In this document: in pieces, positions 33,998 to 37,500 of the stretch
How the letters are laid out: each line of letters opens with the position of its first letter
Numbering within the stretch: position 1 is the first letter of the stretch
NCBI GenBank assembly: GCA_018239815.1
Contig: JAFEGP010000012.1
Span: forward strand, 157-64,156
From: Verrucomicrobiota bacterium
Lineage (GTDB): Bacteria > Chlamydiota > Chlamydiia > Chlamydiales > JAAKFR01
DNA: 64,000 nucleotides
Direction: 5' to 3'
Program-made: the position numbers and the translations under genes
Notes under the pieces: generated by a model
The model's database searches: none
Told to the model about the DNA's origin: nothing
The model's input: only the letters and a program-made list of their open reading frames with translations

Positions 33998-34558
33998 TTA
34001 GGATTTAAGAATGTTCAATGCTTCCTCATAAGTTTCTCGGCATTTTGATGTAAATTTTGGAATATTTTGTTTGAGTTCTTCATCATAAACGTCGACCAAA
34101 ATATCATATTCGAGTACCCCTTTTGAGATTTTTGCTATTCCAATATGGGGATCATCTAGATCTTTTCCTCCCTTGTCGATAAGAAAAAAAGTGATTCCTA
34201 TGTCTTTTATTGTTAGTGAATGATTTTTTAGATAAAAGCACAACGCTGAGTCGGAATTAATATCTTCAAGAAAATCATGGGCAGCATTTATCAATATTTT
34301 TCGCAGTTCCTGTTTTGATAGCGGCCCATAAATTTGAAACTTCAGTTCTAAATATTGTATATCTCCTCCTGGCATTGCTACTGTAATAGCAAAGGGCCTC
34401 ATCTGATATTTCTTTGCAAGTGATTCAGAGTTGCGTGCCATTACCGCATTTACTGCTTTTTCATCAGGAGGTATTTCATATTTCATAGACTTACCAAAAA
34501 ACGAACAGAAAATTACAAAATTAACTATTAACAAAATAAATACGAGCAATTTTTTCAA
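33998..34558 (-). CDS. candidate immunity protein for the RHS C-terminal toxin (membrane-anchored/exported, 186 aa)
   Basis: Its TTG start overlaps the RHS TGA stop (TTGA, 34555-34558). N-terminal hydrophobic anchor KKLLVFILLIVNFVIFCSFFG. No recognisable family. The position is typical of rhsI genes. Confidence 0.55.
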   Translation of the reverse strand: MKKLLVFILLIVNFVIFCSFFGKSMKYEIPPDEKAVNAVMARNSESLAKKYQMRPFAITVAMPGGDIQYLELKFQIYGPLSKQELRKILINAAHDFLEDINSDSALCFYLKNHSLTIKDIGITFFLIDKGGKDLDDPHIGIAKISKGVLEYDILVDVYDEELKQNIPKFTSKCRETYEEALNILKS

Positions 34559-37500
34559 TTTTTCCGCCCCTTTATGAATACATTTAATTCATCTATTAAT
34601 GCCCGTCGATATGTTAGGCTCTGAAATTCGTGATCAAAGAAACCAGCTTCGGAATGAGAGATGAGATTAATGATTGTATCTTTTTCTCTATCTGCACCAC
34701 TTTTATCAATGCGAGGAATAAAATCCCGCTTTATAGATCCGTTCCGATAATGAGTGACTTGAGCGCATGTTGTCTGATAAATGTAGGCTCCAGGAGCAAT
34801 GGCAGCCACAGTGATACGATCTCTAAGTTCTGGTGGATAATCTAAAAGGGCATTTCTAACATGGATAGCACCTTGACTGTGGCATACCATTAAAAACTTC
34901 GCATTGGTCGAGTTTTTTTCAAAATAACTGTTCCACATTTTTTGAAGTAGTCGAACGGGTTCTGTCGCAATATACCTGAGCCCTAATTCACATTCCACAA
35001 GGTCTGTTTTATTGCCATGAGTTGCATTATAAACCGCATGAATAGAATGACCACCAGCTAGCTTGGAAAGATACAGAGCATTGTCATAAGCACTGTTAAA
35101 ATCATTCCAAACTCCATTTATAAAACCAATCGCAAGATCTGAAATTTCTATTCCTGGAACTTGGTAGGTCTTGGAAGGTTCATAAAAACCATATATTTTC
35201 TCAAAGTCGTCGCAATATTTGATTATGGGTAACTGAGAACTATTTGTTTTATCTAGATCACCCCCTCTTTTACAGGTACGGTGGTGTTCACAAAAACAAT
35301 GGTCTTCTACTTCGCCATAGAATTGTTCTTCACTGACTTGTGACTCTAGGCCAAATGGATCATAGCAGCGTAAGGGATTATTGTGACAATAAGCATAAAG
35401 GTTAGGTCCATCGATAAAACCTGCTGGATCTTTGCTGATCCATCGACCAATAGATGGGTCGTAATAACGGAAACCGAAATAGATCAGTCCTGTTTCTTCA
35501 TCGATTGGTTTTTCGGCATAGCGCCAATGATTTCCTAGAGCTGAAGAGGAAATTTGTTTTTGATAGGCATTGTAAATCTTTTCGGTGCCAAATGCCGAAT
35601 AGGTATAACTTTCAACAATTTCTCTGGAAGCAGGGTCAAGAAGAGCTATGACATTGCCAAAAATGTCGTGCAATATGGCGAAAGTCTGACTTTCGATTTC
35701 TATTGCAATGCTTTTTAGAGAGATTTGGCTACCAGCTATTCCTGGCACACGGAGCTTTTTGATGGCGCCTTTTTCATTGAGAATCCCTAGCTCGTGAAAC
35801 CCAATGTAAAAGCTGCGTGTTGTGAATAAAGTCTTCTTATTTTTTTCTTTGGAATCGTATGTTTTTTTGATGGCTCTGCGGCCAAAGGGGTCATAGGAAA
35901 AAGAGAGATATGTTTGATCAGGCTTTTCAATAGCAGTGAGCTGTGACAAGATATTGCTTTCAAACTGGCTTTCTTCTCCATCAAGTGTTTTTCTTAAAAG
36001 ATTCCCTTGTGGGTCGTAAGAAAATTCCGCTTTAGCTTGTGCAATCAATTGGTTAAGACTGTTATAGAGAAGTTCATCTTTGTTTTCTTTTAGACGGTTT
36101 TCAAGAGAGTCATAGGAGTAGTTTTTTTGAATACCATTTTTTTCTGAAGTAAGTTGCGAGAGCGAATTGTAACTATAAGAGCTATTTTCAGTAGAAAAAT
36201 CCCCTTTTCTTTGAATGATTAAGAGATTGCCTAAAGCACTATAGCCATTTGCTGGTACAGTCTCAGAGTAATAGTCGGTTTCAATAAGCGTTTTACGTCC
36301 ATTGAGGTCATAATGAGTGCGCCTGTCACCACAATAGCCAATGAATGTTTCTTCAAGAAGTTTGCCTGATTCATCGTATGACGTGTAGGCATGGCTGTAG
36401 AGCTCTTCTCCTTGAGGAGAAATACGTTTGACTTCTCTTCCAAATACGCCATCGTATGTATAGGCAATGCTTGAATCATCGGGAAGAGCTATGGATTTTA
36501 CTCTGCCTTGCCGATCATATTGAAAATTGAGTGTATATTTTCCTTCTCCATCTTTGACAATCTCTTGAGTAATCTGATTGAAGATGTTGTAGGTTCTCTC
36601 GACGGATTGATTTCCTAGAGTGGCAGCTGATATAACGTTCCCTCGTCGATCATAGGAATAGCTATTCGCAAGAAGGGGGGTATTTTTTCCTTCTTGATAT
36701 TGAATTGTAGACAAACAGCCTTGTTTAGTGTAGCTAAAGGTTAAAGGAACAGAAGTACCCGGAAGAGTTTTGGTCTCTAATTGTCCTAGAGTGTTGTAGG
36801 AATAAGTAGTTCTTTTCTCGTCAGAAAAACCTTCCGCTTCAATGAACTCTTCAACGCGCCCCATTGGACCATAGATCCATCGTGTTTTTTGAATGCTTGG
36901 TTGTTTTCCATCAGTGATGACGGCATTCTCTTCTAAAGATTTATTACCAACACCATCATAAAAAATGCTTTGAGAGGAAAGGAGCGTTCCTTTTGCGTCT
37001 TTTTTGATCATGGATATAGTTCTGCCGAGAGCGTCAAAATCAATTTTTGTTTGCACGCCTTCGGAGTTGATGATTGTTTTTTTGAGGCTATTTTTTCCAT
37101 AATCGATTAGCACTTTGATCTCATTGCCGGAAGCATCCGTAAATAAAATAGGCTCCCCAAATGAATCATAAGCAGTTTTAATGATGGACCTATCTGAAAA
37201 TGTAAATTCTTCCACGCAGTGTCCGGAAGAATCGTAAACAAATCCCTTGCGGAGTTGAATATTGCCGGCTGCACCCTCTGTTCTTTTTTCAATGACATTG
37301 CCTAAAAGATCATATTCAACACATTCTACAGAGTAATCTGATAGACCTAAATCAAACCAAATTTTTCGCTTATTTTCTCTACCTAGAGAGTCGTAACCAA
37401 TTTCTGTTTTTCTTGATTGAGGGTGATTTTCACTTTCATTATAAGGATATTGAAGAATTGCAATCACTCTTCCCTCAGGATCATGGCGATAGACGGTAAA

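Follow-up and report, generated by a model that had tools for sequence, protein, structure and literature searches.

What does the C-terminal end of a rearrangement hotspot (RHS) protein of an environmental chlamydia do, and how is the small gene behind it connected with that role? We addressed this question for a stretch of 64,000 nucleotides (nt) from contig JAFEGP010000012.1 (assembly GCA_018239815.1), the whole of which is called the window and is numbered from its first letter. A preliminary description of the window had pointed to the 263 amino acids (aa) that follow the motif DPFGL at 34558-35346 on the minus strand and had expected them to form an alpha/beta-hydrolase toxin. The extent of this region was borne out by the open reading frame (ORF) and by the end of the TIGR03696 match, and our models predict it to be a serine hydrolase toxin with an alpha/beta-hydrolase fold. 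We hold it to be highly probable that the region is a catalytically competent toxin of this fold with a cognate immunity protein. The protein and its C-terminal region are laid out as follows:

34555..40098, minus strand: RHS/YD-repeat protein, intact ORF of 1847 aa (ORF listing; Pfam and NCBIfam)
35347..35574, minus strand: RHS-associated core, residues 1509-1584, ending in YDPFGL (TIGR03696)
34558..35346, minus strand: predicted C-terminal toxin region, 263 aa, residues 1585-1847 (TIGR03696 end and ORF)

The 1847-aa protein contains multiple tyrosine-aspartate (YD)/RHS repeats, matching Pfam RHS_repeat in six stretches (E = 1.2e-52) as well as the NCBIfam models TIGR01643 (E = 6e-36) and NF041261, and its homologues are 1830-1880 aa long. 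TIGR03696 covered residues 1509-1584 with its full length (profile positions 1-76 of 76, E = 1e-23), and the family profile aligned the same region to the structures of TccC3 and YenC2. As the TIGR03696 match stops at residue 1584, we took residues 1585-1847 as the C-terminal region; domain numbering plus 1584 gives the numbering of the full-length protein. The arrangement of a core with a DPxGL end followed by an unrelated 263-aa domain is that of RHS toxins and, by analogy with these, the YDPFGL end of the core is the expected autoproteolytic release point of the toxin. All motifs listed in the preliminary description were found in the translation, LAIGFINGVWN at domain positions 71-81, VYNATHG at 105-111, LMVCHSQGA at 152-160 and FFDHEF at 236-241, and the Cys-rich CFCEHHRTCK lies ahead of them at 17-26.

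34567..35229, minus strand: predicted lid-less alpha/beta-hydrolase fold, DUF687-related, domain residues 40-260 (AlphaFold2, Foldseek and Pfam)

The AlphaFold2 model of the 263-aa domain, built from 36 homologues, had a predicted local distance difference test score (pLDDT) of 89.3 and a predicted template modelling score (pTM) of 0.84, and showed a central beta-sheet flanked by helices. A Foldseek search against the PDB gave 106 matches at E <= 1e-3, and the best 50 of these 106 were all alpha/beta-hydrolases, in agreement with the fold that had been expected. The leading matches were to APT1/APT2/LYPLA lysophospholipase, P. fluorescens carboxylesterase, cutinases and poly(ethylene terephthalate) hydrolases (PETases), and pancreatic lipases (6qgs, E = 1.6e-5; 6bje, 5.7e-5; 1auo, template modelling (TM) score 0.51/0.59); feruloyl esterase, polyhydroxybutyrate (PHB) depolymerase and acylaminoacyl peptidase were also among the best. 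PDB sequences were searched with the domain by itself and then with two profiles; no significant hydrolase match was found, the profile matches being confined to the RHS core end (TccC3/YenC2) and a marginal match of the nucleophile elbow to the esterase MGS0156 (E = 0.008). The elbow was also the centre of the sub-threshold Pfam matches to DUF3089, Palm_thioest and Hydrolase_4 and of the weak PDB sequence alignments, in which Ser157 stood opposite the nucleophile position of MKS1. With hhalign, the family profile and B. subtilis LipA (1I6W) were aligned at the elbow alone, Ser157 with Ser77, at negligible probability. An NCBIfam scan of the toxin domain and of the immunity protein found no match. 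The match to Pfam DUF687 (PF05095) was well above the gathering cut-off of 25 bits, the domain scoring 44.9 bits (E = 7.8e-12) and the whole protein 40.0 bits, and it joined domain residues 69-237 to profile positions 34-195 of 537. By score, the toxin domain belongs to DUF687. The earlier remark, that the domain was not recognised as any named Tle or phospholipase family, held in so far as no Tle family was matched; a named Pfam family for it, DUF687, itself uncharacterised, had been overlooked.

A fold of this kind needs its catalytic residues, and we mapped the following candidates:

35113..35115, minus strand: Gly78 (domain numbering) in the INGxxN turn after strand 71-76, candidate oxyanion-hole residue (conservation and model)
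34876..34878, minus strand: Ser1741 (domain Ser157) in C-H-S-Q-G, predicted nucleophile (conservation and model)
34723..34725, minus strand: Asp1792 (domain Asp208) in RDFIP, predicted catalytic acid (conservation and model)
34630..34632, minus strand: His1823 (domain His239) in FFDHEF, predicted catalytic base (conservation and model)

Across 230 distinct homologous domain sequences, Ser157 was found in all 230, Asp208 in 229 (the other having Glu), His239 in 226 of the 226 sequences ungapped at this position and Gly78 in 228 of 228, while the elbow Gly159 was kept in 225 of 230. In an alignment confined to the 39 most divergent sequences, invariance was limited to Gly78, Ser157, Leu167, Asp208 and His239. 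The model places these residues where such enzymes have them: Ser157 sits between strand 150-156 and helix 158-168 in an elbow of the form small-x-nucleophile-x-small, Asp208 in the loop after strand 196-202, the next but one strand, and His239 after strand 225-228 and ahead of the last helix 244-260, in the order nucleophile, acid, His. Ser1741 and His1823 had already been named as catalytic candidates, and both are invariant in the homologues and stand at canonical places in the model; their codons read as had been stated (ACT on the plus strand and AGT on the coding strand for Ser1741; GTG and CAC, respectively, for His1823), and the acid that had been left unnamed is Asp1792. The proposed GxSxG motif stood as to its place, the nucleophile elbow, and has to be corrected as to its letters, which are C-H-S-Q-G. 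Judged from the alignments, such conservation is what marks an active hydrolase of the Ser-Asp-His type, and the domain would be expected to catalyze.

The first residue of the elbow is Cys in 198 of the 230 homologues, Ala in 15, Gly in 7 and Ser in 5. That it is Cys and not Gly in our protein speaks for an inactive alpha/beta-hydrolase-like domain serving in binding or as a scaffold, as has been proposed for DUF687, in which case the product of the adjacent gene would be a partner and not an immunity protein. Elbows of the type small-x-Ser-x-Gly that begin with Ala, Ser or Thr occur, however, in active lipases, and we confirmed AHSMG in the sequence of B. subtilis LipA. Moreover, conservation in the family is highest at Ser, Asp and His, which are also the sole invariant polar residues in the divergent set, a pattern unexpected of a dead enzyme. 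We give an inactive domain very little credence and proceed with an active hydrolase.

The second element of the locus is the gene immediately downstream:

33998..34558, minus strand: putative cognate immunity gene, 186 aa (synteny, homologues and model)
34493..34558, minus strand: hydrophobic N-terminus of the immunity protein (MKKLLVFILLIVNFVIFCSFFG), candidate signal peptide, lipoprotein signal or membrane anchor (model helix 2-20 and homologues)

Its TTG start overlaps the stop codon of the RHS gene (TTGA, 34555-34558) and is preceded by the purine-rich AAAGGGG. We studied synteny in the 60 related loci whose sequence extends 500 nt or more past the toxin ORF, accepting homologues of the immunity gene that start within -120 to +400 nt of the toxin end, and found one directly downstream of the toxin in 55 of the 60. 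Several loci have tandem arrays of three to five immunity homologues with interleaved orphan toxin fragments (L059:162-3879, L063:6544-8637, L042:779-3396, L028:6082-7863, L043 and L056); no extra or orphan copies of the toxin or immunity gene were found in the window, which holds a single pair. Divergence is faster in the immunity protein than in the toxin (45% vs. 66% identity in one example). It had no Pfam match at E <= 1, nor did any of 50 homologues contain a Pfam domain. The model of the protein is a confident alpha+beta structure (pLDDT 92.2), for which Foldseek found no PDB match at E <= 1e-3; the best sub-threshold matches, ferredoxin-like half-domains such as the MamM C-terminal domain, are generic and we judged them not meaningful. 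A strongly hydrophobic N-terminus is present in 107 of 116 immunity homologues, and a lipobox Cys in 16 (strict pattern) to 33 (relaxed pattern) of the 116; the protein of the window has a non-canonical box (...FVIFC followed by SFFG). An N-terminus that is hydrophobic or carries a lipobox points to an immunity protein that is exported or membrane-anchored and faces the periplasm. This fits the exported or anchored immunity candidate of the preliminary description, which turns out to be a conserved partner of the toxin. We also considered a cytoplasmic target for the toxin and rejected it as less likely, given the export or anchor N-terminus in 107 of the 116 homologues. On the strength of the conserved synteny, the 186-aa protein is the cognate immunity protein, and it would act by binding.

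RHS toxins are known for the exchange of C-terminal domains between similar cores. We compared the core and the domain in eight relatives, all of which had been chosen as homologues of the C-terminal domain, and found no such exchange; the identities for the core and the domain were, for example, 83.5% vs. 88.4% and 57% vs. 66%. A C-terminal domain conserved as well as or better than the core suggests that shell, toxin and immunity protein have long belonged together as a dedicated unit rather than being shuffled as cassettes, and on these alignments core, toxin and immunity gene appear to be co-inherited. The GC content is 0.358 at window positions 34000-34999, which hold the toxin end and the immunity gene, and about 0.40 in the surroundings (26000-46000); across the windows of the RHS core it is 0.37-0.40, and the dip at the toxin/immunity end is small. 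Small GC dips are often seen at cassettes of an Rhs C-terminus and its immunity gene.

A further element lies between the core and the hydrolase:

35269..35298, minus strand: Cys-rich linker CFCEHHRTCK, part of CxCxxHRxCKRGG, between DPFGL and the hydrolase (alignment)

The full motif CxCxxHRxCKRGG is a strongly conserved feature of one subclade, occurring in 27 of 111 RHS-linked homologues; it is rare in the 94 short homologues without the RHS core-end motif, 11 of which have a looser CxC..H..C pattern. In the model the linker is disordered, pLDDT being below 50 for domain residues 1-35. We therefore rejected it as a feature of the whole family; it may serve in metal binding or in processing.

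How widely is the domain found, and on what kinds of proteins? We identified 72 close homologues of the toxin domain. When 1.84 billion representative proteins were searched with a profile, there were 2390 matches, of which 1531 had E <= 1e-10 and 752 had E <= 1e-30; the matches lie mostly in proteins 1650-1970 aa in length. In a scan limited to a single genome for each species, we located 66 loci with the toxin domain. These are in metagenome-assembled genomes (MAGs) and isolates of Chlamydiota (Parachlamydiaceae, Waddliaceae, Rhabdochlamydiaceae and Simkaniaceae), save for a few bins labelled otherwise, which are probably mis-binned; the nearest locus, L001, is 88% identical in the domain, and look-ups by exact sequence found neither the RHS protein nor the immunity protein of the window on record. 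Database labels for the homologues are 'hypothetical protein', 'RHS repeat-associated protein' or 'DUF687 family protein'. Of 237 homologues, 233 have the domain at their very C-terminus, 111 of them being proteins of at least 1000 aa. A 2.6-Mb chlamydial MAG (CAWHVD010000001.1) has at least five domain loci (L003, L004, L006, L032 and L055), each with a diverged immunity gene, which suggests diversification of specificity within the genome. On the metagenomic contig of L067 (6105-11128), the RHS gene is broken into many short ORFs with the toxin end and the immunity gene intact; the breaks probably reflect a pseudogene or faulty assembly.

The domain is also carried, with an intact triad, by proteins other than RHS proteins. 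Some are Inc-like, with the domain at the C-terminus and a bilobed hydrophobic segment as is typical of chlamydial inclusion-membrane (Inc) proteins (L057, 5452-6567; L060, 5446-6588; P0284, P0285, P0288, P0292 and P0297). A 354-aa protein, P0042 (L068:6001-7065), combines the hydrolase domain with two eukaryote-type IQ calmodulin-binding motifs (PF00612, E = 6.5e-11) and is a possible host-calmodulin-dependent effector, and L047 encodes a small signal-peptide protein with the domain. No immunity homologue was found downstream of L047, L057 or L060, or adjoining P0042, which is followed by a divergent DUF1016 gene.

Such effector-like carriers without an adjoining immunity gene are what would be expected if the hydrolase were a host-directed effector that hits an amoebal target, such as membrane lipids or S-acylated proteins, and if the downstream protein merely shielded the envelope of the producer during export. 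The same is suggested by the best fold matches being APT1 and APT2, by the life of chlamydiae inside host cells and by the classical members of DUF687, from pathogenic Chlamydia, being predicted Inc proteins (PMC3048545). Against this, 55 of 60 loci pair the RHS-linked form with an exported immunity protein, and host effectors are typically without immunity genes (Zhang et al. 2012, PMC3482391). The arrays of immunity genes, the orphan cassettes and the fast divergence of the immunity protein are hallmarks of interbacterial polymorphic toxins. The RHS protein also appears to have a Sec signal and not a type III signal:

40036..40098, minus strand: putative Sec-type signal peptide of the RHS protein, about residues 1-21 (MLIRFALSVFLIFLSLGSLRA followed by DQ), read from the translation

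This N-terminus looks like a Sec signal when judged by eye. We find a host-directed role of the RHS-linked form unlikely and prefer an interbacterial toxin.

For such an interbacterial toxin, we propose the following mechanism. The 1847-aa RHS protein would cross the inner membrane by means of its Sec-type signal peptide. Its YD repeats would form the RHS shell, and self-cleavage after YDPFGL (residue 1584) would free the 263-aa region, as RHS and TcC proteins encapsulate their C-terminal domain in a shell and release it by autoproteolysis. The freed region would consist of a disordered, partly Cys-rich linker and a compact lid-less hydrolase with Ser1741, Asp1792 and His1823 as the putative triad and the turn of Gly78 as the putative oxyanion hole. 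This hydrolase may be a serine esterase directed at acyl groups that are bound by ester or thioester linkages in the cell envelope; (lyso)phospholipids or the acyl chains of lipoproteins would be the likeliest substrates, and the enzyme would reach them from the periplasm of a diderm target cell. The 186-aa product, exported or anchored, would neutralize the toxin in the periplasm of the producer by binding it. We consider it rather probable that the two genes form a toxin-immunity module that works in this way in an environmental chlamydia (order Chlamydiales).

Several observations weigh against this account. A 2024 survey classed DUF687 members as alpha/beta-hydrolase-like but without catalytic residues (PMC11878206). 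The similarity of toxin and immunity protein covaries among loci (Spearman rho 0.75, n = 44), which may be mere shared phylogeny. No delivery genes (VgrG, PAAR, TcA or TpsB) were found among the neighbours. The remaining points concern the substrate. The similarity to solved hydrolases is low (TM about 0.4-0.59, identity about 10%, root-mean-square deviation 4.5-5.7 A), which makes the domain a remote, structurally uncharacterized branch, and with a fold similarity so remote the substrate class cannot be read off. The nearest folds span acyl-protein thioesterases, polyester hydrolases and lipases alike, and the model has no lid or cap insertion and no obvious membrane-binding element.

The fold without a lid would also suit a periplasmic serine hydrolase that is still an interbacterial toxin but has a substrate other than a lipid, such as a serine peptidase, a polyester hydrolase of the cutinase kind or an esterase of peptidoglycan O-acetyl groups or other carbohydrate esters. 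Cutinases, PETases, feruloyl esterase, PHB depolymerase and acylaminoacyl peptidase are among the best fold matches, some homologues have the Joint Genome Institute (JGI) auto-annotation 'pimeloyl-ACP methyl ester carboxylesterase', and alpha/beta-hydrolase toxins need not be lipases (Zhang et al., PMC3482391). The top-ranked fold matches are, however, lysophospholipases and acyl-protein thioesterases, and no specific non-lipid substrate is positively indicated. The known interbacterial toxins of this fold with periplasmic immunity proteins, Tle1-Tle4, are phospholipases. A non-lipid substrate appears improbable to us, and for a membrane lipid we put the chances at slightly short of even. From the model, 'lipase' is one of several possible ester or thioester activities, the closest folds being lid-less esterases, lysophospholipases and acyl-protein thioesterases.

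The genes around the pair include DUF720, isochorismatase, NAPRTase, deaminase and PNPase. The RHS protein has no PAAR domain and no genes of a type VI secretion system (T6SS) were found nearby, and the protein does not have the make-up of a T6SS-delivered Rhs effector. Divergent from the RHS gene, the plus strand of the window has three tandem ORFs of 162-168 aa at 40706-42228, the middle one of which matches the Chlamydia-specific DUF720 (E = 1.2e-10), in keeping with the chlamydial origin of the DNA. On the other side, the approximately 1.1 kb at 32851-33997, 3' of the immunity gene, has ORFs of at most 87 aa, and no toxin or immunity remnant was detected there; it contains one weak terminator-like hairpin (33807-33793, minus strand), and in a promoter and terminator scan the counts were at or below chance. 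The minus strand also encodes, about 1.1 kb past the immunity gene (31333-32850), a 505-aa protein with hydrophobic N-terminal segments, a long Gln/Glu-rich region that looks like a coiled coil and no Pfam match, and it could be Inc-like. Farther away (27820-29631, plus strand) are three consecutive paralogous ORFs of about 194 aa for multi-pass membrane proteins, which by eye we take to resemble MarC/UPF0056.

The locus matters for several reasons. A branch of DUF687, a family called catalytically dead in print, keeps a perfect Ser-Asp-His triad and appears to be used as a toxin, which gives it a testable function. With 752 representative clusters at E <= 1e-30 and 66 loci, it makes up a large uncharacterized chlamydial toxin-immunity pair. 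One catalytic module seems to be used in two settings, in RHS toxins with an immunity protein and in Inc-like and IQ-motif proteins without one, and makes a case for the exchange of modules between toxins and effectors. Both proteins are small and confidently modelled and should be easy to express and assay. More speculatively, environmental chlamydiae might fight each other in shared host cells with an anciently co-inherited unit of shell, toxin and immunity protein, delivered by a route that depends on Sec and not on T6SS, the Inc-type DUF687 proteins (CT326 and others) and the triad-bearing Inc-like and IQ-motif proteins being host-directed derivatives; we offer this picture tentatively and regard it as doubtful.

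Among known families, the closest to the toxin domain is DUF687, with C. trachomatis CT326 and C. pneumoniae CPn0066, CPn0069, CPn0381 and CPn0882: the score is above the cut-off, nearly all homologues of the toxin carry the DUF687 label and both DUF687 and the RHS-linked domain are confined to Chlamydiota. DUF687 proteins have been described as an N-terminal hydrolase-like domain followed by a C-terminal bundle of transmembrane helices (PMC11878206, PMC3048545). In contrast, only about the first third of the 537-position profile is matched by the toxin domain, the transmembrane bundle is absent here, the protein ending 10 residues past the domain, and the RHS-linked domain, unlike the DUF687 described, has an attached immunity gene. 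In a homologue search with the divergent alignment, the best 120 matches all belonged to the RHS/effector clade. The triad is invariant in the RHS-linked clade and is said to be lacking from DUF687, the classical members being compared here by their published description only (PMC11878206); the alignments contradict the published lack of catalytic residues for this clade.

Tle1-Tle4 and their Tli immunity proteins have much in common with our pair, namely an alpha/beta-hydrolase toxin with Ser-Asp-His, an adjoining immunity gene for an exported protein or lipoprotein and frequent duplication of the latter. Tle1-Tle4 are, however, delivered by T6SS, whereas here no T6SS genes are nearby and the RHS protein appears to be exported by Sec; none of the Tle-associated Pfam families (DUF2235, Lipase_3, DUF3274 and PGAP1) matched the toxin domain even at E <= 1. 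Unlike Tli, the 186-aa immunity protein is without a detectable relative among solved structures or in Pfam.

Tox-ABhydrolase-1, -2 and -3 are likewise alpha/beta-hydrolase C-termini of polymorphic toxins, including RHS proteins, and are predicted to attack lipids (PMC3482391). The first equals DUF2235 and is linked to T6SS, and ABhydrolase-2 and -3 are paired with SUKH, Imm66 or Imm69; ABhydrolase-2 has been noted in a Protochlamydia/Parachlamydia symbiont, there without an immunity protein, and is otherwise mainly proteobacterial (PMC3482391). In contrast to Tox-ABhydrolase-2 and -3, from which it is set apart by description and not by sequence, the chlamydial family has an exported immunity family of its own, and no SUKH or Imm Pfam match was found in the 186-aa protein or its 50 homologues. 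In structure, the best matches are APT1/LYPLA1, APT2 and P. fluorescens carboxylesterase II, which are similarly compact, lid-less and of the Ser-Asp-His type but differ in being housekeeping enzymes with about 10% identity and no sequence-level match to the toxin domain. Full-text literature searches found no paper that connects DUF687 with RHS toxins and none on this immunity family. The toxin family and the immunity family are new, within a known kind of toxin-immunity system.

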